Source: Phage NC-B. From it: a stretch of 64,000 bases of DNA. Positions 32,211 to 62,231 of the stretch are shown piece after piece; the stretch's first letter is position 1; each line of letters starts with the position of its first letter. Under the pieces are notes generated by a model. The model worked only from the letters and a program-made list of their open reading frames with translations. It made no database searches and had not been told where the DNA came from. The translations under genes were made by a program, and so were the position numbers. The stretch lies in the sequence record MK310183. One strand, given 5' to 3'.

Positions 32211-33032
32211 TTATTCCCAAGTTTTATCTAACCATGACCAATCAAAGAGGTCACCTTCAGCTTGTCCAACGAAGAGCAATCGAGCGTTTTCTAACATCTT
32301 ATCTTCTGCTTCTTCCTCGAACCTCTTATAGTATTCCATTCGTATAATATGATAAAGAGTCCACTTATCGAATACCTTCTCAATAAGTTTGATTGCAGCC
32401 TTGCTACCAATGCCTTTACGACGCATTACTAGATTGCCACCCCATATCATTTCAACCTTCTCACCACATCCGGGAATGTTATCTGTGCTATCCCCGATCA
32501 GCATCTGGTAGAAGAAGTTCTGCCATGCTACTTCCTCTGGTACATAGTGAGGAGGTACTTCTTTCTGTCTCTCCCCGCAAGCCCAACGGTAATGCCATCC
32601 GGGGGTGATTAACAAATCTTTATCACGGGTGCAAATGATAGTGTTCTTATCACGTCTCTGTCTTTCAGCTAAGGCATCATCTGCCTCTCTCCCAAAAACT
32701 TCAACGAATTCATAATTCTCTTTAATGTAATCGCTGACATTTTGCCAGTGGTGAGGTCTTTCTCCCGGTGGTCGATTAGCTTTATAACCTTGCTGCTTAG
32801 CAATATCAAACCGAAAATTACCACCTTCGCTGAAGTAAAAGATTGTTTTCTCGCAACCAGACCTTGCAATGATTACATCTATTTTATGTTGAAGTCGTTC
32901 AATCAAGAATCCATAATCAACTGGAACACGACCTGTGTCTAGAAAAGGATGCTCTTGTGTAAGAGCACCGACTTCATATCGCAGAACATCTGCATCTACA
33001 ATTGCTACTTCCGGATAGATTACATCAGACAT
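32211..33032 (-). CDS. 5'-3' exonuclease / flap endonuclease
   Basis: motifs IVDADVLRYE, GREADDALA, TRDKDLL, GDSTDNIPG; start moved to internal ATG 33032 (overlaps upstream stop by 8 nt). Confidence 0.85.
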   Translation of the reverse strand: MSDVIYPEVAIVDADVLRYEVGALTQEHPFLDTGRVPVDYGFLIERLQHKIDVIIARSGCEKTIFYFSEGGNFRFDIAKQQGYKANRPPGERPHHWQNVSDYIKENYEFVEVFGREADDALAERQRRDKNTIICTRDKDLLITPGWHYRWACGERQKEVPPHYVPEEVAWQNFFYQMLIGDSTDNIPGCGEKVEMIWGGNLVMRRKGIGSKAAIKLIEKVFDKWTLYHIIRMEYYKRFEEEAEDKMLENARLLFVGQAEGDLFDWSWLDKTWE

Positions 33033-33621
33033 AGAGACCTCTCCGTGTCCCTTCAATAATCCACTCCAAATCCTCCACTGCCTCTTCTACAGAACGGTCG
33101 TTAAAGAGGAGATAGGTTGGTAGATTTGTTCCTTCAATATAAGAACGAGAGTCCCCTTCAAAGGAGCAGCCATCTCGGAGAATCTGAACTACTCGAACAT
33201 GGAAGTGTTTCTCTAGTTCTTCAACTTCTGCTTTAAATCCACCATCAGAGAAGACGATAACATCATTCTGTGATGGGATACGTTGTTGAATATTGCTAAC
33301 AGCAAGTTTACCCATGCAGGTCTCACCAAACATGGGCTTCAGATAGTTCTCACTAGTTGCAATCATCAAGTCTCGAACTGACTTACCGTCCCATTCAGGA
33401 CGGCTATGTTCTTTCCACTCACGATCGTTGTACAGCTCCATGAACTCATAAAGAGGTAGACCTAATGCAGCAGCAGCCACTCGATACATAGGCTCCTTAA
33501 AAGCCTTTACATGCGGCCTAAACTCGGTGTTACCAAGTGTTTTCTCTAACCAAGAATTAGCGATTGTGTCTTTACCACAACCCGGTGGTCCATTCAGAAT
33601 TACTACTAATGGTTTACTCAT
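33025..33621 (-). CDS. P-loop kinase, putative (d)NMP kinase
   Basis: Walker A LNGPPGCGKDT. Confidence 0.55.
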   Translation of the reverse strand: MSKPLVVILNGPPGCGKDTIANSWLEKTLGNTEFRPHVKAFKEPMYRVAAAALGLPLYEFMELYNDREWKEHSRPEWDGKSVRDLMIATSENYLKPMFGETCMGKLAVSNIQQRIPSQNDVIVFSDGGFKAEVEELEKHFHVRVVQILRDGCSFEGDSRSYIEGTNLPTYLLFNDRSVEEAVEDLEWIIEGTRRGLYV

Positions 33622-42967: not shown

Positions 42968-43145
42968 TTCCTACCTCCGTGTTCTTCATATAAGAAGCTA
43001 CAGGATTTACACTCTGAGCAATGGATACCTATAACCTTAATTTCGACAAACTTCTTATTCTTCCCTTTAGTCGGGGAGCCTTTGGCAAGCTCCCGTATTA
43101 CTTTCGAGTCCAAATGGAGAAGAGTTGATTCACATTTAAAACATT

Positions 43146-43466
43146 TCAGATTGATTTGTCCTTATGTAAACGGTATACTTCAGTAGCCATACAAGCTATA
43201 CGCTCGTCATGAGGAAGATGCATACCAGTGGAGCCATTCCATCCATTGAACTCTGAATCAAAGAATCCGATAGGCTCAGGATACATCTCTTGCAAAGTGG
43301 TTAAGTCATCGGCCACTTGTTGCCATTTGTCATCAGACCAGATTGGGTCATCCAACCAATAATACAAATAGGAGTGGATAAGCATCTGTGTTCTGTATCG
43401 TTTAATCACTTCAGCAGGACTAATCTCGTTTCCGTTACCAGTCCTAAATGTATTATCGTTGATCAT
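43146..43466 (-). CDS. hypothetical protein
   Basis: 106 aa ORF. Confidence 0.5.
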   Translation of the reverse strand: MINDNTFRTGNGNEISPAEVIKRYRTQMLIHSYLYYWLDDPIWSDDKWQQVADDLTTLQEMYPEPIGFFDSEFNGWNGSTGMHLPHDERIACMATEVYRLHKDKSI

Positions 43467-43775
43467 TTAGATAACCTTGTGCTCGTAGATGCTGGGGTTG
43501 AAATAATGCAACCAGTTTATATATTGTTTCTGTTCAAGGTAGTGTCTGCAATCATGACAAAAAGCATGACCCAAACCTGTTTCCTCGTTCAGCTTGAAGT
43601 TGATAAGAAGCTTCTGCTTTTGACAGAAGCTACATGCTTTAGTGGGCTTCACGTAGTGCATCCCATGAGATTGGGAAAAGTTTACGAAGCTCTTCATCAA
43701 CAGTTGATGCGAACACTCGTACTTCATACTGAGCATGGTCTGACAGCCGCTGACGACATAACTCTGACCAACCAT
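43467..43775 (-). CDS. hypothetical Zn-ribbon protein (start uncertain)
   Basis: Cys pairs CSFC...CHDC; 5' part overlaps the 3' end of thyX, true start probably internal (ATG at 43697 or 43661). Confidence 0.4.
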   Translation of the reverse strand: MVGQSYVVSGCQTMLSMKYECSHQLLMKSFVNFSQSHGMHYVKPTKACSFCQKQKLLINFKLNEETGLGHAFCHDCRHYLEQKQYINWLHYFNPSIYEHKVI

Positions 43776-44289
43776 ACAAAGAGCCTGTCCACACCCATTC
43801 AGTGATCATGCCCTGAGGCAATACAAATCGAGCTTGCTCTGGAGCAATAAACTTAATTAATTCATCATACGACTCAAGAGCTGTTTCATATGCCCGATTA
43901 ATCAGAACTAGTGCAGAGTTTTGTGCTCCTGTGGTGAGGAGATTCCCCGCACCTGCATGGAGGTCCGAAGGTCTTTCAAAAATCTCTTTAGGGATGAAGA
44001 GTTCAACTGCTCCATCTTTATACCGCCGGGACATTTCGTTCCACGAGAATCCAACTTGATGCTTGCCCAGCTGTCTCGCAATTGCGATTGGCGCTTTGCA
44101 TCGGAAGCTAATTGTCGGATGACGGAATGGTGTGACATGCTTTTCTCTGGCAAGGAACTTGATAAGGCGTTCATCTCGTTCATTTAACTCTCCTTCACGA
44201 GTAACCCCAAAAGAAACTCGAGCTGCATTAACAACAGATTTATCAGAACCCATTGCTTCGATTAGTGTTGCTTGTAATTGTTCATTCAT
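43639..44289 (-). CDS. thyX: flavin-dependent thymidylate synthase ThyX-like (divergent)
   Basis: AARVSFG..., HVTPFRHP, RLSDHAQYEV match ThyX; canonical RHR motif replaced by KHQ (LGKHQVGFSWNEMSRRY). Confidence 0.75.
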   Translation of the reverse strand: MNEQLQATLIEAMGSDKSVVNAARVSFGVTREGELNERDERLIKFLAREKHVTPFRHPTISFRCKAPIAIARQLGKHQVGFSWNEMSRRYKDGAVELFIPKEIFERPSDLHAGAGNLLTTGAQNSALVLINRAYETALESYDELIKFIAPEQARFVLPQGMITEWVWTGSLYGWSELCRQRLSDHAQYEVRVFASTVDEELRKLFPISWDALREAH

Positions 44290-44520: not shown

Positions 44521-44796
44521 TTACTTACCTTTCAGAGCCGTGTCTAAAAATGCACGGAGATTAGATTCAGTTTGCATACCTGACAAGCTGTAGTGAGCAC
44601 CACTATTCTTATCAGGGACTACAAAGGCTGGGATACTGCGAACACCGTATTCAATAGCTCGCTCTCGACCATCACCTTCAGAGATGTTTACCTCTTCAAC
44701 TTCAACGTTGTAATCAGCCACAACCTTCTTAAACACAGGAGCCATAGCTGCACACGGAGCACATGAATTACTATAAAACTTAATTACTTTACTCAT
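44521..44796 (-). CDS. thioredoxin-like protein
   Basis: VIKFYSNSCAPCAAMAP (CxxC), YGVRSIPAFVV, NLRAFLDTAL; start set to ATG 44796 (AAGGA SD). Confidence 0.7.
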   Translation of the reverse strand: MSKVIKFYSNSCAPCAAMAPVFKKVVADYNVEVEEVNISEGDGRERAIEYGVRSIPAFVVPDKNSGAHYSLSGMQTESNLRAFLDTALKGK

Positions 44797-44986
44797 TCTA
44801 TTCCTTGTTAATAAACAGGTTGATATGACGCTGGGTAGCAGGAACAACAATAAAAGATTTATACTGACCTTTTGCTAAGTCATGAGCAATCTTCTTTGTC
44901 TGACCAAGACCCATCACACAGCCACTAACGATAATGGCATGTGCTTGTAATTCTTCAGGTAGGTTTAGTTTCACTCTTTGGATTCC

Positions 44987-45424: not shown

Positions 45425-46000
45425 TTAGTAAGACACGTCACCACTGGAGTGGGACATGTTGCTCTTGACGAAGTAACAGAACTTGCCAAGACCTTCATTA
45501 ATTTCTTGAAGCATACTCTGATCAACTGGATAGGTGCACAAGTCTGAATCAAACTCGTCCATCTTCTCAATGATACACATAAGAGTCATGCACATGTCGG
45601 AAAGCATACCGTCCATGTCGAGATCAGCGTTACCTTCTCGGAACCAAGCATGACCTAAATAGTTACTAGCAGTAGCATCCACTTTAACACAGTGAAAGCG
45701 CATACGCTCTGCTATTCGGTCGCCTGCCTCACGAGCATAATCTTCTAGTTCATCGAACATACCATGAACACCTTGGAAACCAGCTCCAGAGACGTTCCAG
45801 TGGTAGTTCTTTGCTTTGATGTGTAGAAGTTCAAGGTTAGCTTGCACACCACACAAGATGTGTTCTAAGCTGTTACCACTAATCAGTTTATTCATTCCCT
45901 CAAGACGAGAAATAGAAGAGTCAGTAGTAGAGAATGGGTTGCTAGGACCCACTCTTGTTAGCTCTGGTAAATCGAAGACATTATTATGCATTAGGTGCAT
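45425..46000 (-). CDS. dps: Dps-like ferritin-fold protein
   Basis: LELLHIKAKNYHWNVSGAGFQGVHGMFDELEDYAREAGDRIAERMR closely matches the Dps ferroxidase-centre region (H, H, D, E positions conserved). Confidence 0.8.
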   Translation of the reverse strand: MHLMHNNVFDLPELTRVGPSNPFSTTDSSISRLEGMNKLISGNSLEHILCGVQANLELLHIKAKNYHWNVSGAGFQGVHGMFDELEDYAREAGDRIAERMRFHCVKVDATASNYLGHAWFREGNADLDMDGMLSDMCMTLMCIIEKMDEFDSDLCTYPVDQSMLQEINEGLGKFCYFVKSNMSHSSGDVSY

Positions 46001-46813: not shown

Positions 46814-47347
46814 TTAGACACCCTTAGAAGCAACTACACCTTCGCTACCATTATAGCGACCCTTAACTGCATAGGAATGTTCACCAGCATGTGAATGCTC
46901 AAACATCACCATCTGACCAACACGCATACCAGCACGAACTCGTAAGCTGTGGTGCTTGGTTACGTTATGAAATTCGAATGTCAGCTTGCTGTTGTTAAAC
47001 CCAGCGTCTGCCCAACCAGCATGTAAATGGTTCAGGCCACAACGAGCCATCGAAGATCGCAAAACAAACAAACTGGAGATGTTATCTGGAAGGTTGAACT
47101 CTTCCATTGAGTGAGCCAAGAAGAATTGTCCCGGAGTGATGATAATACCATCTTCAGGGATTTTTACTTCTTTCCACTTGAGGTTTTCTTTAGCATCAAT
47201 GTCAACAATACCATCAGCCTGTTCTTCAACAAGGATAGTATCACCAATGCGGATATCCACGCTAGCAGCGTTAACATATTTATGCTCCGCATCTAAAAAG
47301 CCATTATCAATAACGCTGTGTAATTCTTGAGAACCTAAAAGACTCAT
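46814..47347 (-). CDS. dcd: dCTP deaminase (Dcd/dUTPase superfamily)
   Basis: AASVDIRIGD, RSSMARCGLNHLHAGWADAGF, LRVRAGMRVGQMVMFE match Dcd. Confidence 0.8.
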   Translation of the reverse strand: MSLLGSQELHSVIDNGFLDAEHKYVNAASVDIRIGDTILVEEQADGIVDIDAKENLKWKEVKIPEDGIIITPGQFFLAHSMEEFNLPDNISSLFVLRSSMARCGLNHLHAGWADAGFNNSKLTFEFHNVTKHHSLRVRAGMRVGQMVMFEHSHAGEHSYAVKGRYNGSEGVVASKGV

Positions 47348-48789
47348 GAGTTTCTGTTTCCTTGTACGGATGATGCCAAATTATTAATCATGTTGCGAGC
47401 TGTTTCACGAGATAGTGTAACACCTGCTAAGTTGTTACGAAGCTCACCAGATAGTTCACGAGCAGTAGCTCGAAGTTCTGCACCAAGTGCAGTGTCAGAG
47501 TGAGCCAGACCGTTACGACGACCAACAGGTCGAGGAGCTTCGTTAGCGTCATTAGCTAATGATGCAAAACCAATATGAGCAGCTTCACGAGCCGCTATAG
47601 CTGATACTCGATCTTCTGTAGGGGTTGGTAAATCACCAACGTCTACACGTTCGATATCACTAGCACGAATTCCACCAACAACAGATCTTACTGTTTCCCA
47701 TGAACGACGAGAACGCTGCAAATCATCCATTGATGGAGAAGAAACAGGACGAGCAGTTCCCCCTGAGACATGCCATGTATGGTTGTGGGTGTCCGTCCCG
47801 GAAGAGCGTGAACTAACACGTAAGTCACCGGTAAAAGTTTCACGAGGTGCCACTGTAGAAGGAGCTGCGAATCTTGCCTGTTGCCAAGAATCACGTCTGT
47901 TGGTTCCCGGAGTCCAAGGCTGCGTGATTGCTTCAGCACCTATAGTGGTTAATCCGCTAGACCATTCTGTCTGTAGATTAACTTCCTCGTCCAGATAACT
48001 ACGACCCCTTTCCTGAGGAATGTTTAATATAGTTTCCATCATCTTCAGGGTATAATGACGACGCTGATTCTGATATAAATTTACACCAGCCATAGGTCCA
48101 ACTAAATCACTAATCAGGTGAACTTCTGGCTCACCGAAAGCTCCCATTGCAAGGTGCATATATTCAGTAGAACTGCTATAAACTGCAACAGTTGCTTCAG
48201 GCCACTTCTTGTGAACATACTTCATTTCACGACTAGATACCACAGGAATGTCACGAGTGTATGACATTGCAAACAAACCTTCGTTTGACACATACAGATT
48301 ACCAAGAGTCATAAACCCTTGACAGATCATAGGGAAGCGACGGCTTAAAGTGTCCATATCCAAAGGTAGATTAATCATCATCTGGATTTTAACTTGATCA
48401 ATCTCAATTTCCAGAATCTCTTGGAAAGTGAAAAGCGCTTCAGCATAAGTTGTCCCGTTAACAGGTTGAACTAGTCGAGATGTTACTTGAAGTCCCTTAC
48501 TCTCTGTCCAAGACAAGAAGTTGTCGAGGAACAGTGCAGCATTGCCTACGTTAGCAGGGCTATTTTCCTGACGAGTGTTCCAACGAAGACCGCCTTGAAC
48601 TAGGAAGATATCAACATCATTCGGAGTTCTATTTTGGAAGAACGTATCACGGATAGCACCACCTGCAATAACAGGATAGATGCCATCAGGGACTACGTTA
48701 TCTCTGATCAAATTACGAATCAGGTCAAGCCCTACACTGAGGGCTTCTCCTTCTTGAAGGTTCAATTCAGACAATGGAATCTTAATCAT
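47344..48789 (-). CDS. nucleotidyltransferase (CCA-adding / poly(A) polymerase head-domain type) with disordered Arg/Ser-rich C-terminal half
   Basis: VIAGGAIRDTFFQNRTPNDVDIFLV matches the GGxxRD...DxD head-domain signature; C-terminal about 230 aa are R/S/T/A/G-rich low complexity. Confidence 0.6.
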   Translation of the reverse strand: MIKIPLSELNLQEGEALSVGLDLIRNLIRDNVVPDGIYPVIAGGAIRDTFFQNRTPNDVDIFLVQGGLRWNTRQENSPANVGNAALFLDNFLSWTESKGLQVTSRLVQPVNGTTYAEALFTFQEILEIEIDQVKIQMMINLPLDMDTLSRRFPMICQGFMTLGNLYVSNEGLFAMSYTRDIPVVSSREMKYVHKKWPEATVAVYSSSTEYMHLAMGAFGEPEVHLISDLVGPMAGVNLYQNQRRHYTLKMMETILNIPQERGRSYLDEEVNLQTEWSSGLTTIGAEAITQPWTPGTNRRDSWQQARFAAPSTVAPRETFTGDLRVSSRSSGTDTHNHTWHVSGGTARPVSSPSMDDLQRSRRSWETVRSVVGGIRASDIERVDVGDLPTPTEDRVSAIAAREAAHIGFASLANDANEAPRPVGRRNGLAHSDTALGAELRATARELSGELRNNLAGVTLSRETARNMINNLASSVQGNRNS

Positions 48790-51595: not shown

Positions 51596-51802
51596 TTAGT
51601 AAAACGATCGTATTTCTTCCCACACATCATCTTGCAAGTTTCTAAAACCCTGCAAGGTTTGCTTTGTTCTGTGAATAAATTCTTCAGAGTGCTTATCAGG
51701 TGTGAGCATACTGACAAACTTTTCATAGCGATTAATCTTCCACCGCATCTTCAAGTAGTCAGATTCCAGCTTTCTTAACTTCTGCCTGTCAGTTACTGTC
51801 AT
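51596..51802 (-). CDS. hypothetical protein
   Basis: ORF 51596..51898 trimmed to ATG 51802 to limit overlap with upstream gene. Confidence 0.4.
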   Translation of the reverse strand: MTVTDRQKLRKLESDYLKMRWKINRYEKFVSMLTPDKHSEEFIHRTKQTLQGFRNLQDDVWEEIRSFY

Positions 51803-52220
51803 CCTTCTCACCTGCCAGATATGCTGTCCAGTCACCAGATTCAACCAGAACATCTTGTTCTTCGTCGATGTGATAAATCCACGCTTCCACAGTTTCACCG
51901 CTGTCCAATAATACTGGAATCAGCGTACGCTTGTAAAAGGTGTATGGGTTATCATTACCACGATGACCTTCCAGACCGTCATACGGACCTTCCAGACCAG
52001 CTTGGGTTGTTTCAAAGACCTCTACACGAACAGGCTTACCGTTGCTGTCATGCTCCAGAGATACACTTGGGAAGTATGCTGTGCAATACTGATACAGGTT
52101 ACAGTTGTTTACTGTCCACCCTTCACCAATAGACACACCACCTGCGCGAGCATTGATAGCGTGGTTGTGTTGACCTTTACGAAGAGAACCATACGTTGCA
52201 ACTAATACTTTATCAGACAT
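51789..52220 (-). CDS. gamma-glutamyl cyclotransferase-like (AIG2/GGCT family) protein
   Basis: N-terminal VATYGSLRKGQHNH (YGSL motif). Confidence 0.7.
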   Translation of the reverse strand: MSDKVLVATYGSLRKGQHNHAINARAGGVSIGEGWTVNNCNLYQYCTAYFPSVSLEHDSNGKPVRVEVFETTQAGLEGPYDGLEGHRGNDNPYTFYKRTLIPVLLDSGETVEAWIYHIDEEQDVLVESGDWTAYLAGEKDDSN

Positions 52221-52224
52221 TACA

Positions 52225-52422
52225 TTACCTTTTGTTTAAAATTTCTTTTGTACAAGAAGTCCCGTTACACACGAGAACTGTTTGAGTTATAGAATCGACA
52301 ACTGTTACATGGCTGCCGCATTGAGTTATGATTTGACCTCTCCCTGAATCTTTAGAGATGCATTCATCAGCGGCGATTGCTGACACACTGAATAAGGAGA
52401 GGAAAAATAGAATCTTTTTCAT
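52225..52422 (-). CDS. small secreted Cys-containing protein
   Basis: signal peptide MKKILFFLSLFSVSAIAADE; 5 Cys in mature part. Confidence 0.45.
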   Translation of the reverse strand: MKKILFFLSLFSVSAIAADECISKDSGRGQIITQCGSHVTVVDSITQTVLVCNGTSCTKEILNKR

Positions 52423-52428
52423 TGCTGC

Positions 52429-52845
52429 TTACCAATCATGTTGGAAACCAGAATATCCAGAGAAGATGATTGATCGGATTGGCTTTTCAGGGAATTCTTC
52501 AAAACATCCCTTAATGGCTTTCTTGGTTTCATCAGACATTGACTCTTTTTCGCCAAACCAGTATTCTTCAAAAATATCAGAGAAGATATAAGTTCGGTAT
52601 CTTTCCAAGTCATAAAAACCTTCCACTGCACCTGTAACAGCTCGACTGATCGTACTAGAAGCTACAGGAAATAAATCACTGTGCTCCATAAATAAACACC
52701 AACGATCAAAGAGTGGAATCTCTTCATCTTTCAGAAGACTCTCTAATTCTTCCTTTGCCTCTTTCTTATTCTTCTCAAAGAGGTTTTTGGAATATTCTAC
52801 ATCTAAGATACGACTCTTAAACATATCCAGTTTATTGTCAACCAT
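52429..52845 (-). CDS. hypothetical protein
   Basis: 138 aa ORF. Confidence 0.5.
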   Translation of the reverse strand: MVDNKLDMFKSRILDVEYSKNLFEKNKKEAKEELESLLKDEEIPLFDRWCLFMEHSDLFPVASSTISRAVTGAVEGFYDLERYRTYIFSDIFEEYWFGEKESMSDETKKAIKGCFEEFPEKPIRSIIFSGYSGFQHDW

Positions 52846-52901
52846 TTACAACCTCCAGTTAAATTCGAACTAGCCTCCTCTTTCGAAGAGGCTAAAGCAA
52901 A

Positions 52902-53087
52902 TTATTCTACTTCGAAGTGTTTGATCACACCAGTTAGTACATCAGATTGGAATGTACCCACTAGCTCTGCGCCTCGGAAGAAATTGACATTTGTTCCTAG
53001 TGTTTCAAAGCGCTCTGCTTGAATGTCCAGAGATTGAATATTCCCTTCTGATGTTACTGTACGAAACATGATTGTATATTTATTCAT
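52902..53087 (-). CDS. hypothetical protein
   Basis: 61 aa ORF. Confidence 0.4.
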   Translation of the reverse strand: MNKYTIMFRTVTSEGNIQSLDIQAERFETLGTNVNFFRGAELVGTFQSDVLTGVIKHFEVE

Positions 53088-53326
53088 AGACTTGTTACTC
53101 CCTTATCTGCTTGTGCAATAGCAAAAATTCGCTCTACACATTCCATTGAGTCTTTATCACCACGCTTTAAGAAGGTGACGATAGCAGAGAATTGATTACC
53201 AATCATTCTCTTATTGGTGATACCAAACTCTTCACAGAGTTGGTTAATCATTTTACGAGAGCCTACAATCAGAGGCTCTTTTTCTTCAGTCATTCCACGG
53301 CTGATCAAATCTTCGATAGACAACAT
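53084..53326 (-). CDS. hypothetical protein
   Basis: 80 aa ORF; ATGA overlap with downstream gene. Confidence 0.45.
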   Translation of the reverse strand: MLSIEDLISRGMTEEKEPLIVGSRKMINQLCEEFGITNKRMIGNQFSAIVTFLKRGDKDSMECVERIFAIAQADKGVTSL

Positions 53327-53352
53327 TACAAATTCCTTTTTGTTTAATTTAA

Positions 53353-54588
53353 TTATAGAGTTACTGCTACTTCGCTACCTTCAACATTGACAGACTCTAA
53401 CTTGCGAGGGTTATGAATCTGGACTGGATTGACCGGAACGTTCCAACCACTGCGGTAGAAGTTACGACCATCACAGAACAGGATGACATTGGCAGACATT
53501 GCATTCGGTTGCAGGTTGTTGTGGACATGACGGATATTTGCAATCCAGTAGCCACGAGACAAAGTGTAGCCAGTAGGTGCATTACGAATAGTTTGAGTAT
53601 TCATCTGACCTTCCAGTTGCATTTCTTCAGGAACCATATCAACTGAATCAATCGGCTGTGCTACTTGTCCTTCCAGTGCAAAGTTTTCATCATCAGCACT
53701 TTCACTGTCATCAACCAACTCACCATCTCCGTCTTCAATCGGAGTCTGGTAAACCACTTTATACTGAGGAGTATAGAGAGGGTTCTGAGCTTTAACAAAC
53801 TCAAGAATGTTATGACGGTAGGTATCCAGAGTTGTACCAGTCAGGCCCGGTGCTGTATTAACTTCCAGTACCCACGCTTCTTGACCTTTGGTGATAATAT
53901 CAACTGCACCGAAATCCAGACCCATTGATTCAACAGCTTTCACTGCATTGATCAGAGAGGCGTCATTCGGAGCATCTGTGAAGGAGCTTGAGTAAACCCA
54001 GCCAGTGTGGTGATTACGAATATCTTCACGATAGTTAGGGTCTTCGCGATAACCATTGCGACGAATCTTCTTCTGAACATAGGTGATTACACCTTTGAAC
54101 ACATGGACACGCCACTCACGACGTGGGCCTTGAATGCCTTTAGTGTACAGTTCAGCTCGACCAAGACCATCACCCGGTTCTACAACAACAATGCCCGAAC
54201 CAGAGTGACCAGTCAGCTCATGGCGCTCATACACAATATTACCAGTGTTTGACCACTCTTGAGCAGTCTCTTGAGCATCTGTGTATTCCACAGTTTTAAC
54301 ACCTGCTTGGTCCATCACGCTGAAAGCACGACGTTTGTTCGCTGCCATATGTAAGGCTGCGGTACGGTTAAGGACGGTTGAAGAACCAAAGAATGATTCA
54401 GGATAGCGACGGTTCCCGTAGTTAACAACCACATCACCTTCACGAGAACGCCAGCGGCTATTCTCTGAAAGAAGACCCATCACGTTAGCATTGATGCGTT
54501 CATCACGGATAGTATCACTGATAGCAGATACTAGAGCGTTAACAGAATCAGACGGGCCATACGGAAGAACACGGATACGAGTAGTCAT
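53353..54588 (-). CDS. ATP-grasp ligase (RimK/glutathione-synthetase-like)
   Basis: C-terminal GLDFGAVDIITKGQEAWVLEVNTAPGLTG matches the ATP-grasp Mg/ATP-binding signature; HSGSGIVVVEPG. Confidence 0.7.
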   Translation of the reverse strand: MTTRIRVLPYGPSDSVNALVSAISDTIRDERINANVMGLLSENSRWRSREGDVVVNYGNRRYPESFFGSSTVLNRTAALHMAANKRRAFSVMDQAGVKTVEYTDAQETAQEWSNTGNIVYERHELTGHSGSGIVVVEPGDGLGRAELYTKGIQGPRREWRVHVFKGVITYVQKKIRRNGYREDPNYREDIRNHHTGWVYSSSFTDAPNDASLINAVKAVESMGLDFGAVDIITKGQEAWVLEVNTAPGLTGTTLDTYRHNILEFVKAQNPLYTPQYKVVYQTPIEDGDGELVDDSESADDENFALEGQVAQPIDSVDMVPEEMQLEGQMNTQTIRNAPTGYTLSRGYWIANIRHVHNNLQPNAMSANVILFCDGRNFYRSGWNVPVNPVQIHNPRKLESVNVEGSEVAVTL

Positions 54589-54591
54589 TTT

Positions 54592-54813
54592 TTAGATACC
54601 TTTTAGTTTAAGAATTTCGTTACGACAGGATTGAATTTTAGCTTCGATTGCCCAATACTCAGCGAACATTTCGTCTTCTTGGGCATCGCTTGGAGAGTCG
54701 ATTAAGTTAAAAGCAAACGGATACAGCTTTCGCTGCTCCGTTACCAGTTGTTGAAGTCGGAGTTGTTGATACTCCAGCATTGTCAGGTGAGGCTTAGCTC
54801 CCCTGTTTGACAT
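54592..54813 (-). CDS. hypothetical protein
   Basis: ORF 54592..54822 trimmed to ATG 54813. Confidence 0.4.
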   Translation of the reverse strand: MSNRGAKPHLTMLEYQQLRLQQLVTEQRKLYPFAFNLIDSPSDAQEDEMFAEYWAIEAKIQSCRNEILKLKGI

Positions 54814-55027
54814 GAGGCTCAACTTTAATCCCCTTCATTTTAACATAGTCAGCCAACACGTTATTAATAACGGTTGGAAAAGGGATTTCTACTGGAGAGT
54901 CAACCAGCTTCCCAATACCTTCTTGCATCCACTTCTGGATTGCTCGGAGGTTATCACATCCTGTGCTTGTCATCGGAATACGGCGGGTAGTTACCACGTT
55001 ATCCAACATCAGTTTACGAACTTCCAT
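54794..55027 (-). CDS. hypothetical protein
   Basis: 77 aa ORF. Confidence 0.45.
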   Translation of the reverse strand: MEVRKLMLDNVVTTRRIPMTSTGCDNLRAIQKWMQEGIGKLVDSPVEIPFPTVINNVLADYVKMKGIKVEPHVKQGS

Positions 55028-55038
55028 AACTATACCTC

Positions 55039-57072
55039 TTAGTGTTTACCTTTACAGTAATCTGAATTACAGATCACCCTGTTTTCTTTGTTCAGTGAGC
55101 AAGTTTCTGCATCACGCCACGGAATTTGTTTATAACAGACTGCACAAAACCCAATTGAAGTCCAGAGGGCTTTTGTAAACTCAGCTGTTCGTTGTCCATC
55201 GTAACTGACAACTGTTTTTCGGAGAGAGGTTGACTTTTCTGGAAATGTCTCCGCTTTCTCAGCGGGTACCTCCTTTGGGGCATTCTTTGGACCATAAACA
55301 GAGATGGCATAGGTATCACCACCACGTTTTTCCAAATACGAATTAGGAACATCTGCAAGTGTGATATCCCCTGAACGTTTTGCTGAGCTAACCATTACAA
55401 TCATACGGCTAAGCATACGTTCATCAACACGAACAGCTACTTCAGGACGACGTGGGTTGGTTGTGTCCACTGCTTTAGTCCAAATATAACCCTCAGACAG
55501 CGTAACATTCTTTACTTTGTCTTTGATTTCTTTGGAGCAGATATAACAAACGTCTTCACCACGAAGTTTACTCATTTCGTTGTCAAACTCGAAATCAGTC
55601 TTGACTTCACCACAGATAGCACATACACCCAAAGGCACATCTTCTTCCTCTTCAGAGGTTTTAGATAACGCTTCGAAGCATTCTGGATGCCAGTATGCCT
55701 GATAAGCAAACACAGCCTTACGAGCATCTTTCCAGTCAATGTGCTTATCACAACCACCACAGTCACCATGAGAGTGAGACTCCCAGAACTTACGAGTGAC
55801 TTCTACACCATTCTTAGTGATGAAGGAGTCCTCTGCATCAAAAGGGATATCATCATCAAAATCAGCAGTAGTGCTTTGAGGCTCCTTATCTGTAGCATCA
55901 ACAAACAGCCCTGAAGTTAGTACGAGGCGAATCATACTGTCCACTTCGGAGATACAAGCAATCGTCCCGCGATATACTACCTTTGGGTTTTCAAGAGCCT
56001 TAAGATATTCATCTTTGGCTACGTTGTGAACATCCCCTTCGACATACTCTTGGGCTTTATCATCGTAGATGTAACCAACCATCTTACCACGATCTGTGTT
56101 GTTATAAGCATGGAACTCGTGAGGAATAATATCCACACGACCATCACGACGATAAGGAAGACCACGATCGGCAGCCAGTTTGTTCTGGTCTTCAATCGCT
56201 TTACGACGACGAATGTCTCCGCTTGTCACGCCGGGCTTGTCGTCTTTGTTTCCGTAAATGTCGCTTGTGCTGCTGCTTGATTTGTTTGTCTGTTGGTTCT
56301 GATATAGAGAGGAGTTCGAGTAATAGCCGCCCCAGCGACTCGTTATCGTAAAAACCGGAAGCTTGTGCTCCACCTCTTGAACCAGAGTCATACGACTGTT
56401 AGACACATCAAAGATATACTCAGTTCCCACTTTACACTCGAAGTGGTCATTGATACGGTTCTTATGGGACTTAGAACGCTCTAAAATCCACATAAGCATA
56501 GCTTCTTCAGAAGCCCCAAACCAATCTAAACCACAACGGGCTAGGTGGAAAGGACGCTCATCATTACGGATAATGTGAAGCGTGTTGTCTTTAGCATCAT
56601 GCCAAATCAAAGTGAATGCACCATCCAGTTTTTGGATAGTCTCTGCTGCTCCAATGGTGTTAATTGAGTGGCAGATGTTTTCACTATCAACTTCGAAACG
56701 TTTACTGTCAGGAAGGAGATCTTGATCTAACAGGGTTCCATTATGAACCAGAGTGATATCACCGTGAGTAAATGGGTGAGCGTTTCGAGCATTGACAGCC
56801 CCACGAGTGGCATGTCGGCTATGACCAACAATCCACGAAGGAGGAACTACGTAGTTCGTAAGTCCTTTGGTAATATTCTTATATTCTGTCTGGAGCATAA
56901 AAGCGTAAGAAGGAAGAGCTTCTTTGTAAGAGAAGACTTGCTTTTCACCTTTACGCTGACCAAACACACCAGTTGAGTGCTGTCCACGGAAAACACCAGC
57001 ATACAGAAGTTGGTTGAAAATATCCAAATCTGTTGAGGTCATGTTGCCGCCAGCTAATACGATACCACAAAT
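55039..57072 (-). CDS. class-II glutamine amidotransferase (Ntn-hydrolase) domain protein with Cys-rich C-terminal extension; predicted non-AUG (ATT) start
   Basis: GVFRGQHSTGVF, GHSRHATRGAVNARNAHPF, LVHNGTL match the GlmS/PurF-type GATase domain; in-frame codons just upstream of the ATG read K-I-C-G-I-V-L-A-G-G-N, i.e. the conserved (M)CGIV N-terminus, bounded by a stop two codons further up. Confidence 0.75.
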   Translation of the reverse strand: MCGIVLAGGNMTSTDLDIFNQLLYAGVFRGQHSTGVFGQRKGEKQVFSYKEALPSYAFMLQTEYKNITKGLTNYVVPPSWIVGHSRHATRGAVNARNAHPFTHGDITLVHNGTLLDQDLLPDSKRFEVDSENICHSINTIGAAETIQKLDGAFTLIWHDAKDNTLHIIRNDERPFHLARCGLDWFGASEEAMLMWILERSKSHKNRINDHFECKVGTEYIFDVSNSRMTLVQEVEHKLPVFTITSRWGGYYSNSSLYQNQQTNKSSSSTSDIYGNKDDKPGVTSGDIRRRKAIEDQNKLAADRGLPYRRDGRVDIIPHEFHAYNNTDRGKMVGYIYDDKAQEYVEGDVHNVAKDEYLKALENPKVVYRGTIACISEVDSMIRLVLTSGLFVDATDKEPQSTTADFDDDIPFDAEDSFITKNGVEVTRKFWESHSHGDCGGCDKHIDWKDARKAVFAYQAYWHPECFEALSKTSEEEEDVPLGVCAICGEVKTDFEFDNEMSKLRGEDVCYICSKEIKDKVKNVTLSEGYIWTKAVDTTNPRRPEVAVRVDERMLSRMIVMVSSAKRSGDITLADVPNSYLEKRGGDTYAISVYGPKNAPKEVPAEKAETFPEKSTSLRKTVVSYDGQRTAEFTKALWTSIGFCAVCYKQIPWRDAETCSLNKENRVICNSDYCKGKH

Positions 57073-57149
57073 TTTCTAATCCACCTGAAGGGTAAACCCT
57101 TTCATCTAATTAACCTTTAAATGCGCCCTTTATCAGAGCGCCCATTGTG

Positions 57150-58250
57150 TTACAGCAGTCGTTCTAACTGCATTTCCAGATGATCTGGAATATAACCAGT
57201 GACATTATCATCACTACTGCCTGATTCACGCATCAATGCAAACATGTGACGAATCTCACCAACCGTTGCGGTTCGTGTATTCTCAATCTGGTTAGAGTAA
57301 TGAGATAAGATTTCTTCATAGACACGGTTAGCATTACCACGAACATATCCCAAGAAACCATAGAAGTCATTCATGTCACGAAGATTAATCAAGATTTCTC
57401 CATCAGAACCTGTCTGATGTACACGAACTCGACCGACCAAAGTTACAGATCGCTCACGACAGAACAGAATATCTCGAGCAAGACGATACCCTTCAGTGAG
57501 ATCACTATCTCTTGGGGTGTAGTCTAGAGGTAGATGTTGAATCATAGGAGCGAAGCGCAGCTCATTCAACTTCTCAACATAAGCTTCATTGTCTAAATCT
57601 GCATATTCAACAGCCAGTTTCTTGAGAACCAAGAAACGATTGACCAGATTTAGCAGCTGACTCTTTTTCCACTTCGGCTCTGAGATACGGAACTCAACAG
57701 AACCAAACTGAGAGAGAGGTAACAGATTAAGGGAGGTGTACTTGTCCCAGCTATTAACAAGAGTACGGAAGAAATCTTCCCCATCTCGGTTGAACGCTGA
57801 TGAAGCATTCATAACTTGAGCTTGAACAACAGCAAAAGCTGGGCAGAAGTTACTACGGTAACGATGATATCCAGAACATTTGAACATCATCTTTTCATAG
57901 AACGTCCACCCAAGAATAACTTTCTTAAGGATATTACTATCAGCGTCCCGCATATCCATATGAACGTGAGTGGAGCAGCGCCAAGTTCCCTCGGCTCCAG
58001 AATCCTGTACCGCTTCACTCAGATTGTTAATAGCACGAAGTAATTCTTCACCGTTGTAAGGTCGTGAACAAACTAACTCACAACCATCACGAAGAGAGCC
58101 GTCTTCAGTACAAACCCACATATCGACGTCAATGTCAGTCGTACCTTCAACCTCTAACTCAATACCAACACCACACTGAAAGGCAATACTTGGATGCGGT
58201 TCAGATAAGCGAGGGTTACGGTATCCAAAAACTTGTGCTACGGTTGTCAT
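57150..58250 (-). CDS. amidoligase-like protein (glutamine-synthetase-like fold)
   Basis: GVGIELEVEG and STHVHMD motifs; sits next to the GATase and near a GGCT gene, the neighbourhood I recall being described for this family. Confidence 0.6.
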   Translation of the reverse strand: MTTVAQVFGYRNPRLSEPHPSIAFQCGVGIELEVEGTTDIDVDMWVCTEDGSLRDGCELVCSRPYNGEELLRAINNLSEAVQDSGAEGTWRCSTHVHMDMRDADSNILKKVILGWTFYEKMMFKCSGYHRYRSNFCPAFAVVQAQVMNASSAFNRDGEDFFRTLVNSWDKYTSLNLLPLSQFGSVEFRISEPKWKKSQLLNLVNRFLVLKKLAVEYADLDNEAYVEKLNELRFAPMIQHLPLDYTPRDSDLTEGYRLARDILFCRERSVTLVGRVRVHQTGSDGEILINLRDMNDFYGFLGYVRGNANRVYEEILSHYSNQIENTRTATVGEIRHMFALMRESGSSDDNVTGYIPDHLEMQLERLL

Positions 58251-58873
58251 AATGATTCCACCAACTCTACATTATATGATGACAGGTCTGAAGAAATATG
58301 CTTGAACTTCTCCAGAAGGTTTAAAGATTGACGACCATTGTCGCCATAACCAGCTTCAAGAAGCACGTTTCCAACGTAAGCCCCTTTGTAATAAACTTTT
58401 CCATCGACAGGATTGATATAGATGAAACGAGTAACCAACCCTTCAAACTCTGGATTAAACAGGTTGTACACCAAATCACCCGGAATCGAACGTCCGAGAG
58501 AAGGTGGAGCACCACGAAGTTTATTCCCCATCAAGCCTTTAGCTCGCTGACGAACAGGGTTAATATGGGTCCAGCTCACCATGTTATTACCATGCTGAAG
58601 GTATCCTACATCTGGAGACTCCAGAATGAGGTTGTGATCAAACACTGGGATATTACTAACAATCTGACGTTCAAACTGACCTTCAGAGTTTTTAGTCCAG
58701 CGTTCCGCCTCAAACACTAAAGACATTTCAGCGTCGTGTGAGTAGTCGTCGATATCAAAGTTACCTTGCTGACGAACATCAAGCACATATAGAGGGAGGT
58801 TTTTACCATCAGGTGATCGCTGAGCAATCCATGTTCCACAATAATAGTGTTGAAAATCTCTTAACAGGCTCAC
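58247..58873 (-). CDS. hypothetical protein
   Basis: 208 aa ORF, ATGA overlap. Confidence 0.5.
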   Translation of the reverse strand: MSLLRDFQHYYCGTWIAQRSPDGKNLPLYVLDVRQQGNFDIDDYSHDAEMSLVFEAERWTKNSEGQFERQIVSNIPVFDHNLILESPDVGYLQHGNNMVSWTHINPVRQRAKGLMGNKLRGAPPSLGRSIPGDLVYNLFNPEFEGLVTRFIYINPVDGKVYYKGAYVGNVLLEAGYGDNGRQSLNLLEKFKHISSDLSSYNVELVESL

Positions 58874-58882
58874 AATATCACC

Positions 58883-59689
58883 TTATACAATCTGGAGTTT
58901 AGAGGAGAATTTATCCGCTTCTTTAACATCGTTACTGTTGATGATGTTGTGAAGCTTTTCAATTGGAAGGCGAGAGTGAAGTGACATCAATACTTCTATA
59001 TCACAACCCTGAACAACCTTATCCACTTGCTCATAAACAAACTTGCGAGTGGACTTATCACCAATCCAGAAGTTAGAAAGAGAACGATATTCAATACCGT
59101 AATCTTTGTAGCGAATGGCAGAAGCCTTTCCGTACAACTCTTTACGACGAGTGTCTTTATCCATGATCACAGCTGGCAAGGACAGGAAGTAATCACACAA
59201 CACACCCAACATCATTTGAGTTTGTCGAGTAATCTCTAAAGTCCCGGAGACACCAAGGTGCACATGACCCCCAGCAGTACGCAAACCTTTATCAGTTGCG
59301 ACCGGTGAAGGGTTCTTTTGTCCAGTGAAGGCATTGAAATCAGGAGTACAACCAAATACAAAGGCTGACGGATGGAAAGATTCAAGCTCTTCTGAAGTGA
59401 ACACATGAGAGCTAATCCCAAGTGCTGCCTCCATGCCACGTTCATTGAGAACTTTGTTAGTCAGATCAATACCGCGCTGAATGTTATCATCAAACGCTTC
59501 AAACCCTTTCTGTGGGTTAATATCAAACTCGGCCAGAACGTTGTCTTCTTGAAGACGAACATCAGGAGCCAGATCAATTTTATTATCTTTAGAACAGCCC
59601 AGCTTACCAGCCACAGAGGTGATAATACCGGAAGCAGTACGAACAAACATTTCAGGGTCAGAGCCAATAAGGAAAGCGCGCTTAGTCAT
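58883..59689 (-). CDS. hypothetical protein (possible second ligase-fold protein)
   Basis: AFLIGSDPEMFV and GGHVHLGV resemble the acidic-strand plus HVH pattern of 57150..58250; start set to ATG 59689. Confidence 0.45.
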   Translation of the reverse strand: MTKRAFLIGSDPEMFVRTASGIITSVAGKLGCSKDNKIDLAPDVRLQEDNVLAEFDINPQKGFEAFDDNIQRGIDLTNKVLNERGMEAALGISSHVFTSEELESFHPSAFVFGCTPDFNAFTGQKNPSPVATDKGLRTAGGHVHLGVSGTLEITRQTQMMLGVLCDYFLSLPAVIMDKDTRRKELYGKASAIRYKDYGIEYRSLSNFWIGDKSTRKFVYEQVDKVVQGCDIEVLMSLHSRLPIEKLHNIINSNDVKEADKFSSKLQIV

Positions 59690-60632
59690 TGTAATACTCC
59701 ACGAGTTCATCAAAAAGGGAAACAACACGAGCACCAGCTTCTTCTGGTGTCATTGAGGAAGGTACTGCTTGCATCAGACGTTCGATAAAACTTCGAACAG
59801 TAATTCTGTCCATACGCTGATCTAATACTTCTCGCTTGTGACCTGCACAAGTTGACCAGAGACGTAACCACTCACTCATACTCTCATAATGGTCAGGGTC
59901 TTGGTCACGACGACGTGCCATACGACGGAGAACTCCATCATTATGGTTTCGTACATAACCATCTCGGTTGTCATCAACACCGAATACATTCTGAACCCAT
60001 ACGTTTTCAGAAAATTCATCAGTGGTGCAAATTAATGGCAGAAATGCAATTGCACTCATGTCGCCATCAAAATAAGTCGCTGCTGACTCATCGGTTGAGT
60101 CTACGTCATTACTATAACACCAGCGACCAAAGAAGTTACGACTTAAACCAGCTAAGCGTAGAGCTAAACCGATTCGTTGTCGCTTAAGCAACTCTTCCTT
60201 GTCTTGTACGCCTTCCTGAAGGAACTCCATTCCATTAAAATCACCATCCAAATAGCTACGGATGGTCATTAGTCCAGTAAACACCTTGTCTGCTGGATGG
60301 TTTCGAAGGTTCACGGCAATGGAGTTCACCGAAGTGACAGAGAACATATCTTTATAGCAAGACATTGAGTTAAAAATATCTGTTGCTTCAACTAAAGCTC
60401 TTTCGATATCTTTAGCTGGCACGCCATAAAAATTGTGAGGCCAGAAGTTAATAACTTCAATTTCTGAAGTTCTATCACGAAGGCTTGTTCGGTTACGACT
60501 TTCACCGTTAATGTCTGTAACAGAATACATGTGCATGCAGTTAAAAGTACCAAAGCAAGCTCTTCCTTTGAACACTGACTCACCGAAATCCTCTGCCGGT
60601 GTTACCGGAGCAATCGATGCGGAGATTGACAT
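59682..60632 (-). CDS. hypothetical protein
   Basis: 316 aa ORF. Confidence 0.5.
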   Translation of the reverse strand: MSISASIAPVTPAEDFGESVFKGRACFGTFNCMHMYSVTDINGESRNRTSLRDRTSEIEVINFWPHNFYGVPAKDIERALVEATDIFNSMSCYKDMFSVTSVNSIAVNLRNHPADKVFTGLMTIRSYLDGDFNGMEFLQEGVQDKEELLKRQRIGLALRLAGLSRNFFGRWCYSNDVDSTDESAATYFDGDMSAIAFLPLICTTDEFSENVWVQNVFGVDDNRDGYVRNHNDGVLRRMARRRDQDPDHYESMSEWLRLWSTCAGHKREVLDQRMDRITVRSFIERLMQAVPSSMTPEEAGARVVSLFDELVEYYND

Positions 60633-60640
60633 ATTCGCCT

Positions 60641-61858
60641 CTATTTATTAAAGAATAGTTTTTCCATAATGGTTTCCCACTCTTCTGAGGGGAGGGTTGA
60701 GAACCCGTTTCCGTGAAGCCTGTTTGTCATGCAACTAATAATATTGTACATGTTGTAGCTTCGGGTGGATTCTGTTCCATTGTTCCAGTTATAACCGAAA
60801 ACAATTTTATCGAAGGAGGTTTTATCCGTAGTTACTTCTCGGATAAACTCAACCAAGAGCGATTTCTCTGTGATGACCGCACGTTCACCATCTGGCAGAT
60901 TGCAATACTGAGGAAGAAGGATTGGTAAGAACATCGAATTGTTCACTCGACAATCACGAACACCTTCACTGCGATAGATTAGGCTTGAGAAGTCTTCATC
61001 ACGCAGGTGTCCTTCACCTTCAGTGTATTCACACTGTCGCCACTTGGTCTGGCGAGGCTCAATCATTGTACTACCAACGCCTACTGTATACAGAGACGCT
61101 TGGAAAATACATGAATCGTAATCATTCCCCGTTAAAGCAACTTGCTCGTTGCCGAACACATCCACTGAAGAGTTAATCAGTCGGCTGAATGCAAGAGAGG
61201 CTAAAGGGGACCAGCCTTTCTTATACATCTTGTTCAGCATTTCATACACAGCAGATTTTTCATCATCTGTATAGAATGTACGATTCAGCATCAGATAGAA
61301 CAGAGCGCGATCAGCAGGACAACCATCAGTACAAACACCCATGAATCCTACTTCATGCCATACCAGACATGAGTCAGAATCTTTATCCATGAATGCTTCA
61401 AAGGCTTCCATTACAGCCCTGTCAGTAACATCAGGACGGTTGTTTTCTTCTGCCCATGTTTCTACATGAGAAGGAGGACGAGGGTCTCCATTCTCCACCC
61501 CTTCGCGGAAATATTGAGTGGTAATAGGCTTTTTATCACCATAACGTTTTACACCATAAGCGGGAAGGTGTGTACCAGAGTTCCAGATGTACTTAATTTC
61601 GGACATAGGCATCATGTTTTCGAGAACGTTCTCTTCAGCAGTGCCTTGACGAACCATCATATTTTCACTCCACACCTTAATGCGGATATTCCAGCCGTAG
61701 TTGCTGTCGTATGTGCAGTAGTAGTCAGGATCACCGTCTTCATCTTCACCATAATCACCACCCTGATAGTAACCCGCTTTCAGGAAACCATAACAAGGAG
61801 GCCAAACAGTTACAACGTCTTCTGATTCTTTCCAGCTTTGAAGTGTTACAGGGAACAT
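60641..61858 (-). CDS. hypothetical protein
   Basis: ORF 60641..61957 trimmed to ATG 61858 (AGAGG SD, no overlap with upstream gene). Confidence 0.5.
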   Translation of the reverse strand: MFPVTLQSWKESEDVVTVWPPCYGFLKAGYYQGGDYGEDEDGDPDYYCTYDSNYGWNIRIKVWSENMMVRQGTAEENVLENMMPMSEIKYIWNSGTHLPAYGVKRYGDKKPITTQYFREGVENGDPRPPSHVETWAEENNRPDVTDRAVMEAFEAFMDKDSDSCLVWHEVGFMGVCTDGCPADRALFYLMLNRTFYTDDEKSAVYEMLNKMYKKGWSPLASLAFSRLINSSVDVFGNEQVALTGNDYDSCIFQASLYTVGVGSTMIEPRQTKWRQCEYTEGEGHLRDEDFSSLIYRSEGVRDCRVNNSMFLPILLPQYCNLPDGERAVITEKSLLVEFIREVTTDKTSFDKIVFGYNWNNGTESTRSYNMYNIISCMTNRLHGNGFSTLPSEEWETIMEKLFFNK

Positions 61859-61868
61859 TTTTACCTCT

Positions 61869-62231
61869 TTACTCTGATACCAGAAGGCCCAGAGATTTGC
61901 GAATGTAGTCAATACTACGGAAGTTTCGATAGTTCTCTTGGAAGCGCATCTTTTCAAACTCTGCTTCCTGAAGCTCTACCTCTGCTGCTTTATATCCCGA
62001 TAAAGCTAAACTCACCACATCCTGAGGCAAGACATTACGACGACGAATAAGATATTTATTCGCTTTTAATTTACCTTGTGCACGAGCCATTTTGGCCTTT
62101 GCCGCCTTGATTCCATGAGAAATCCAAAGCAGTTGCTGCTTCAGGTCTTCCTCGTCCATACCACCTAAATCGTTTGCTACTTTATGCAGCGTAGACAGGT
62201 TTACATGGCCTTTAATGGGGCGTAGGTTCAT
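61869..62231 (-). CDS. hypothetical protein
   Basis: 120 aa basic helical ORF. Confidence 0.5.
   Translation of the reverse strand: MNLRPIKGHVNLSTLHKVANDLGGMDEEDLKQQLLWISHGIKAAKAKMARAQGKLKANKYLIRRRNVLPQDVVSLALSGYKAAEVELQEAEFEKMRFQENYRNFRSIDYIRKSLGLLVSE

Follow-up and report, generated by a model that had tools for sequence, protein, structure and literature searches.

The thyX locus and its neighbours

The window analysed here is the whole 64,000-nucleotide stretch of Phage NC-B (sequence record MK310183). Between positions 43000 and 47500 its DNA is 92-95% identical to the phiEco32-like coliphages 4E8, vB_EcoP-101114UKE3, IME267, ECBP2, Bas87 and Bas88, the last two being BASEL phages. The window is that of a phiEco32-like coliphage, and the matched phages belong to the genus Kuravirus of the subfamily Gordonclarkvirinae. 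The minus strand carries every gene from about 31 kb to 64 kb, which form the early/replication module. Profile scans (Pfam, PHROGs and NCBIfam) covered about 45 ORFs of this 31-64 kb region. The G+C content of the window ranges from 0.38 to 0.46 (about 42% for the genome), and that of E. coli is 50.8% (PMC10733785). The following features were considered:

33025..33621, minus strand: deoxynucleoside monophosphate kinase, 198 aa, likely converting dTMP to dTDP (phrog_139 at 1.4e-40)
43639..44289, minus strand: thyX, flavin-dependent thymidylate synthase of the KHx/SRRY subfamily, 216 aa (Pfam, NCBIfam, PHROG and AlphaFold2)
44020..44064, minus strand: variant ThyX motif K76-H77-Q78-V-G-F-S82-W-N-E85-M-S87-R88-R89-Y90, replacing RHR-x2-S-x2-E-x-S-G-R-Y (translation and alignment)
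46814..47347, minus strand: dCTP deaminase (dcd), 177 aa, possibly dUMP-forming (Pfam DCD at 6.5e-35; TIGR02274 at 108.8 bits, cut-off 92.8)
47344-48789, minus strand: 'nucleotidyltransferase', 481 aa, with a GGAIRD...DVD motif recognised by eye, overlapping the dcd start by 4 nt

The thyX ORF opens with an ATG start codon and has a GGA-rich stretch upstream. Its product matched Pfam Thy1 PF02511 over profile positions 1-190 of 191 (E 1.1e-42, 146.4 bits, cut-off 24.8), exceeded the cut-off of the NCBIfam equivalog TIGR02170 (123.4 bits against 87.9) and hit the phrog_85 thymidylate synthase family at 3.8e-61. The AlphaFold2 model reached a pLDDT of 93 and a pTM of 0.87, and Foldseek superimposed it on T. 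maritima ThyX structures with TM scores of 0.80-0.85 (E ~1e-17), i.e. it has the ThyX fold. The original prediction of a ThyX-like protein was thus borne out by PF02511, TIGR02170 and the modelled fold. Phage vB_EcoP-101114UKE3 encodes a protein of identical sequence (100%), annotated as a thymidylate synthase. The thyX/thy1 genes of vB_EcoP-101114UKE3, SU10, Bas87, ECBP2 and Salmonella phage 7-11 are orthologues with 65-100% identity, the same position and the same KHQ, and no substantive difference from the phiEco32-like orthologues was seen; Bas87 carries an additional HNH endonuclease gene immediately upstream of thyX. The gene is therefore an ordinary phage thymidylate synthase that was annotated before in a well-sampled phage group.

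The 481-aa protein beside dcd had no Pfam, NCBIfam or PDB sequence match, its AlphaFold2 model reached a pLDDT of only 34.8, and the only homologues found were at least 85% identical. By eye, its GGAIRD...DVD motif is reminiscent of the head domain found in CCA-adding enzymes and poly(A) polymerases. The motif would hint no less at RNA 3'-end chemistry than at a role in DNA modification.

The variant motif and the residues around it

Translation of positions 44020-44064 on the minus strand reads KHQVGFSWNEMSRRY. A phmmer search against all PDB sequences aligned K76-H77-Q78 to R78-H79-R80 of T. maritima ThyX, with S88-G89-R90-Y91 of the latter further along the motif, and two independent MAFFT alignments gave the same register for the triad (native T. 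maritima numbers are chain numbers converted on the assumption of a 12-residue tag). The first Ser of the motif is preceded by one additional residue relative to T. maritima ThyX, and an intact RHR occurs at no other place in the 216-aa protein. The original reading of the triad as Lys-His-Gln therefore holds, and the alignment disposes of the idea that the true motif lies elsewhere and intact. The literal ThyX signature is RHRX7S (Myllykallio 2002, as quoted in PMC2826268). The query departs from it with K76-H77-Q78-X8-S87: the first Arg is replaced by Lys and the third residue by Gln, the spacer is longer by one residue, and the His and the distal Ser are retained. About 400 homologues that we examined, chromosomal bacterial genes among them, deviate from RHRX7S in the same way, so the signature defines the canonical subfamily and not the entire homologous family. 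Going by these alignments, we file the protein as a predicted ThyX of the KHx/SRRY subfamily and not of the canonical RHR type.

The solved enzymes T. maritima ThyX (TM0449; PDB 1o26 and others) and T. thermophilus Thy1 (6j61) share the fold and about 32% identity with the query. Residues common to the query and T. maritima are H53, R74, Q75, H79, E86, S88, R90, Y91, R147, R174 and H178 (T. maritima numbering). The query differs from both enzymes by KHQ for RHR, by Arg for the Gly before the catalytic Arg and by APEQAR...LPQ for PREVAR...LPL, and T. maritima R165 is replaced by Tyr. T. thermophilus ThyX has RHR, yet it is also without an R165 equivalent. The R165 position is unconserved in the subfamily, whereas the adjoining T-G-S-L is nearly invariant. 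A further ThyX-fold chain, 4p5a, which is presumably PolB (the chain label reads only 'Thymidylate synthase ThyX'), matched at E 2.3e-17 and is far more distant than true ThyX at 6e-29. PolB is a ThyX paralogue of polyoxin biosynthesis (PMC5954106), and unlike PolB the query locus has no nucleoside-antibiotic gene context.

The assumption of the original prediction that RHR binds the dUMP phosphate is largely wrong. According to a review (PMC6514825), the triad forms hydrogen bonds with FAD at its ribityl and at the phosphates of the AMP and FMN moieties, its first Arg alone additionally contacts the isoalloxazine and dUMP, and the equivalent of R165 is named beside RHR as an FAD-phosphate binder. 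Because RHR mainly holds FAD phosphates, the KHQ substitutions would bear on cofactor anchoring and not on substrate choice. R78 of T. maritima points at N1/C2=O of the reduced flavin and stabilises its anionic form (PMC11940539). Replacement of this first Arg of the triad by Lys is plausibly conservative. In other flavoproteins a lysine is able to fill the role facing N1/C2=O. Characteristic of ThyX is a homotetramer with bound FAD, in which three subunits contribute to each active site. Counterparts of T. maritima R80 and R165, two arginines that grip the FAD phosphates in the solved enzymes, are missing from the query, and for this reason FAD binding by the query is an assumption. PMC3352284 contains no mutational data on the RHR residues, and our literature search found no biochemically characterised KHx/SRRY member and no published assay.

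Residues described in solved ThyX as dUMP-binding, uracil-polarising or folate-stacking (PMC6514825, PMC11940539) were all present at the positions checked in the query (H57, R72, Q73, E85, S87, R89, Y90, R154 and R181). Across 112 subfamily sequences S87, Y90, R154 and R181 (T. maritima S88, Y91, R147 and R174) are invariant, and conservation of H57, Q73, E85 and R89 (T. maritima H53, Q75, E86 and R90) is 90% or higher; a closer alignment of 24 sequences shows R72 (T. maritima R74) without exception, and H185 of the query aligns with T. maritima H178. At the position just ahead of the catalytic Arg (T. maritima G89), 396 of the 400 non-RHR sequences compared have Arg, and all ten sequences of an RHR set (the T. 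maritima and T. thermophilus enzymes and eight ThyX of phages from GenBank records) have Gly or Ala. Loss of the third Arg and the change from SGRY to SRRY thus appear to come as a package. The compared sequences fall into two clades, and therefore the correlation may reflect one ancient event and not repeated compensation.

Distribution of the subfamily and purifying selection on thyX

Of the 120 database homologues closest to the query, 116 had the pattern KHQ-xGF-SWNExSRRY, at identities down to 53%; Salmonella phage 7-11, Chaseviridae (SKA49 among them) and many metagenomic phages are represented in this set. A HMMER search was run exhaustively over 1.84 billion cluster representatives (50% identity) and the best 150, all with E < 1e-36, were analysed. 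None of these 150 carried an RHR triad: KHQ was found in 69 and KHK in 20, and the rest had other K/R-H-x forms (RHT, KHT, RHQ, KHV and others). Three homologues (P0121, P0132 and P0260) contain an HNH-containing intein inserted exactly between xGF and S of the motif; inteins typically sit at conserved functional sites. Pairwise dN/dS of thyX was 0.07 against Bas87 and 0.17 against SU10, demonstrating that the gene is under purifying selection. Judged from the homologues compared, KHQ is a conserved signature of a large ThyX subfamily and neither decay nor drift. The neutral drift of a degenerate motif offered in the original prediction is contradicted by the fixation of the triad across this subfamily, by the dN/dS values and by the correlated changes described above. 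A second element, the KQGS loop, occurs in 129 of the 150 representatives, and 119 of 120 sequences of the marine and Nitrospinaceae type have it too. The loop is replaced in the enteric-phage subclade, by LHxGxG in the Kuravirus/7-11 clade and by KLMTQ in the Chaseviridae clade.

One genome per GTDB species was scanned with sequence patterns, which returned 36 loci of the KHQ-type subfamily. The patterns were taken from the 24-sequence alignment and contained KHQ and SRRY, so that the matches carry the motif by construction and only their genomic context is informative. Four Nitrospinaceae MAGs share the gene order AcrB, HlyD, thyX, IspH, MlaA, and 25 contigs, the longest of 334 kb, encode a Nitrospinota KHQ-type protein. 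In two Spirochaetia, one of them represented by the 1.79-Mb chromosome OZ251568.1, thyX stands in an operon-like run with dihydroorotate dehydrogenase (pyrD) and OMP decarboxylase/OPRT (pyrF/E), and in Poribacteria and Dehalococcoidia it lies among ordinary metabolic, non-phage neighbours. These bacterial KHQ-type thyX genes look like resident chromosomal genes, and from this genomic context the KHQ-type enzyme is implied to make dTMP. A 4.7-kb 'Prochlorococcus' single-cell contig (L022) was rejected as a cellular case, as a gp32-like ORF recognised by eye, which agrees with a gp32-containing context seen elsewhere in the analysis, makes it probably a myophage fragment. Contigs of Herbiconiux (526 bp) and Deinococcus (267 bp) were set aside as possible contamination in view of their size.

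Among phages, KHQ-type ThyX is very abundant in T4-like marine myophages, and KHQ also occurs in Chaseviridae and Salmonella phage 7-11. The bacterial and the T4-like myophage proteins share KHQ-VGx-x-WNExSRRY with the query at 41-46% identity; they have the KQGS loop, and where the classic motif has its first Ser they frequently carry Val or Ala. The KHK triad is found in an N4-like phage and in Barba phages, and in some Streptomyces and Bacillus phages the His is gone as well (KYA, KYV) and SRRY is retained. We know of no report of non-canonical DNA for the KHQ and KHK phage groups named in this paragraph.

Pyrimidine supply and the question of modified DNA

The dCTP deaminase gene lies 2.5 kb upstream of thyX on the same strand. 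The solved chains closest to its product are 4xjc, which we take to be the bifunctional Bacillus halodurans enzyme, and 2qxx/2qlp of M. tuberculosis (E ~1e-14), with E. coli 1xs1 reaching only 5e-7. In PMC5519681 the mycobacterial enzyme is likewise described as a bifunctional dCTP deaminase/dUTPase with dUMP as direct product. The phage dCTP deaminase may possibly be dUMP-forming as well. A separate dUTPase was not found among the roughly 45 ORFs scanned between 31 and 64 kb, and E. coli encodes a dUTPase of its own. The absence of a phage dUTPase means little, because the deaminase is closest to a bifunctional enzyme and a host dUTPase is available. The deoxynucleoside monophosphate kinase gene is annotated also in the Kuravirus-like phage YF01 (PMC9965538). 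Most likely the phage thus encodes a standard supply line from dCTP through dUMP and dTMP to dTDP, as far as can be predicted from its genes. The original prediction was right about a nearby dCTP deaminase and, for the ORFs scanned in 31-64 kb, about the lack of a recognisable dUTPase; the non-standard pathway that it derived from them falls with the host dUTPase and the bifunctional-like deaminase.

The BASEL paper (PMC11990801) reported that Gordonclarkvirinae withstand restriction-modification systems remarkably well, with neither a modification pathway nor an inhibitor known, and it speculated on dU-containing DNA in this group from the dCTP deaminase and the adjoining nucleotidyltransferase. 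The window contains 11 EcoRI, 29 EcoRV and 8 EcoKI sites, and EcoP1 sites are plentiful as well; site avoidance was therefore ruled out as the cause of the resistance. CTGCAG, GAGCTC and GGCC-containing sites are strongly avoided in the window, which suggests that the DNA is exposed to restriction. In vitro, EcoRV and EcoRI cut virion DNA of Kuravirus SR02 into fragment patterns (PMC11997193). This digestion speaks weakly against a bulky thymine (hyper)modification and leaves room for dU or hmdU. DNAs containing dU or hmdU are cut by many enzymes.

Phages with dU-DNA (PBS1-like) have no thymidylate synthase and carry functions that degrade dTMP and inhibit Ung or dUTPase. Avoidance of dTMP synthesis is not what we found here: purifying selection on thyX is strong and the phage also has a dNMP kinase gene, which argues against dU-DNA in Gordonclarkvirinae. 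No Ung/dUTPase inhibitor, glycosylase inhibitor or dTMPase/dTMP phosphatase was recognised among the ORFs scanned (31-64 kb). Systems for 5-hmdU hypermodification comprise genes for a ThyA-like dUMP hydroxymethylase, a 5-hmdU DNA kinase and a transferase. By Pfam, PHROGs and NCBIfam no such hydroxymethylase, kinase or transferase was detected among the same ORFs of 31-64 kb.

A probable working thymidylate synthase and its alternatives

Taken together, the ORF probably codes for a functional flavin-dependent thymidylate synthase belonging to a ThyX subfamily that is both distinct and widespread. The enzyme would turn dUMP, CH2-THF and NADPH into dTMP. Its FAD-phosphate clamp would be built differently, with K-H-Q (or K-H-x) for R-H-R, an additional Arg (R88), where T. 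maritima has G89, that may play a compensating role, and a replacement of T. maritima R165 beside the conserved T-G-S-L segment. The Lys at position one of the triad could still neutralise the N1/C2=O charge of the reduced flavin, and the residues for dUMP and folate binding and for the chemistry would be unchanged. The phage dCTP deaminase would supply dUTP for the host dUTPase, or dUMP directly, and the dNMP kinase would take the step after ThyX. The pathway would thereby raise the dTTP supply for a genome of 42% G+C replicating in a host of 51% G+C. Against this reading we counted the loss of R80/R165 and of the KQGS loop, the restriction resistance of Gordonclarkvirinae and the fact that the phage gene is dispensable in principle, because the host already has ThyA.

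Dispensability is also the starting point for regarding the ORF as a decaying or catalytically dead relic, whose motif drifted because the gene is superfluous next to host ThyA. In the historical signature two residues out of three have indeed been replaced, but the dN/dS of 0.07-0.17, a motif that is identical in homologues down to 53% identity, the conservation of the remaining checked functional residues across the subfamily, the confident AlphaFold2 model and the inteins placed exactly inside the motif make this extremely improbable. Somewhat closer to the sequence changes themselves is a thymidylate synthase with different flavin handling (FMN, another hold on FAD or another reductant), i.e. 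a biochemically distinct ThyX class. The missing equivalents of R80 and R165 and the correlated gain of R88, T168-G169-S170-L171 and APEQAR for PREVAR would fit such a class. However, Lys/Gln together with the new Arg may do no more than re-create the usual FAD site, and R165 has no equivalent in the RHR-bearing T. thermophilus enzyme either; we regard this explanation as unlikely.

The original prediction also raised an altered substrate or product. In this case ThyX would make a non-canonical pyrimidine nucleotide (e.g. 5-hydroxymethyl-dUMP by water capture of the exocyclic-methylene intermediate) or use another substrate, and a modified base in DNA would contribute to restriction resistance. 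The resistance of Gordonclarkvirinae to the tested systems despite plentiful EcoRI, EcoRV and EcoKI sites, the divergent KQGS loop of the enteric-phage subclade, and the many nearby ORFs and a large amidoligase/GATase cluster without assigned function would be in line with this. On the other hand, KHQ/SRRY is common to syntenic chromosomal genes of bacteria and to many phage groups, and the checked residues around dUMP and flavin are all conserved. The ORFs scanned include no candidate for the accessory functions named above, the SR02 patterns oppose bulky hypermodification (dU/hmdU being still compatible), and the avoided sites suggest DNA that is exposed to restriction. An altered substrate or product is thus not indicated, and we consider it very unlikely. 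The more specific proposal that the KHQ ThyX of Gordonclarkvirinae, having also lost the KQGS loop, makes a C5-modified dUMP such as 5-hydroxymethyl-dUMP, which is incorporated into DNA and explains the restriction resistance in vivo, is in our view highly doubtful. The small probability that we keep for an altered product is owed to the unexplained restriction resistance of the group.

If dU-DNA falls away, the restriction resistance of Gordonclarkvirinae needs another explanation. For the ThyX family, the comparison of homologues indicates that the KHQ/SRRY motif marks an under-described subfamily. The textbook signature RHRX7S leaves out this large group of KHx...SRRY enzymes, which marine and enteric phages carry in abundance and several bacterial phyla encode on the chromosome, and motif-based filters, such as the one in PMC2826268, may discard its members.

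The loop region of ThyX and a possible exchange of thyX between lineages

In the subfamily of ThyX proteins characterised by a K-H-x triad and an SRRY motif, the KQGS loop was nearly invariant, being present in 129 of 150 representatives and in 119 of 120 marine sequences. At this position the NC-B protein carries DLHAGAG (residues 108-112 and onward, window ~43954-43968, minus strand); the loop reads LHxG[SA]G in the Kuravirus and 7-11 phages and KLMTQ in the Chaseviridae. HNH-containing inteins were observed exactly within the ThyX motif of three homologues outside the window (P0121, P0132 and P0260), inserted between KHx-xGF and S/C-xNExSRRY.

The chromosomal ThyX of Nitrospinaceae (locus L012) and that of T4-like marine myophages (contigs L047-L049) share ~76% identity and, because of this similarity, the sequences suggest that thyX was exchanged fairly recently between these phage and host lineages.

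Genes around thyX and dcd

The interval between thyX and the dCTP deaminase gene dcd on the minus strand holds a thioredoxin and a ferritin/Dps-like protein, and a ligase-domain protein and a putative nucleotidyltransferase are also encoded nearby:

43146-43466 (-), stand-alone NAD+-binding Ia-domain protein, 106 aa (Pfam Nlig-Ia, 3.9e-33)
44521-44850 (-), thioredoxin
45425-46000 (-), ferritin/Dps-like 'DNA binding protein' (Pfam Ferritin, 7.3e-08; phrog_3636)
47344-48789 (-), 'nucleotidyltransferase', 481 aa (phrog_12715)

The 106-aa protein corresponds to the N-terminal Ia domain of NAD-dependent DNA ligase only and is annotated as 'DNA ligase' in related phages despite the absence of the catalytic domains. 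The 481-aa ORF overlaps the start of dcd by 4 nt and contains a GGAIRD...DVD motif resembling the heads of CCA-adding and poly(A) polymerase enzymes, followed by a long, low-complexity, Ser/Arg-rich C-terminal half. Searches of this protein against Pfam, NCBIfam and PDB returned no matches, the homologues found were all at least 85% identical to it, and its AF2 model had a pLDDT of 35.

Palindrome avoidance and the amide-bond enzyme cluster

Site counts over the whole window revealed a selective avoidance of palindromes: CTGCAG (14.6 expected) and GAGCTC (15.4 expected) were both absent, as was every GGCC-containing hexamer, and CCWGG occurred just 3 times. Neither GAATTC (n=11) nor GATATC (n=29) was avoided.

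Enzymes of amide-bond chemistry were found grouped in one large cluster (51789-61957, minus strand), which also includes several ORFs of unknown function:

51789-52220 (-), gamma-glutamyl cyclotransferase
52429-52845 (-), DUF7020 protein
53353-54588 (-), ATP-grasp RimK-like protein
55039-57042 (-), class-II glutamine amidotransferase, 667 aa
57150-58250 (-), Amidoligase_2
58883-59734 (-), 'phiEco32-like COOH-NH2 ligase type 2'

This cluster could have a bearing on the unexplained restriction resistance of the Gordonclarkvirinae, the subfamily to which this phage belongs.
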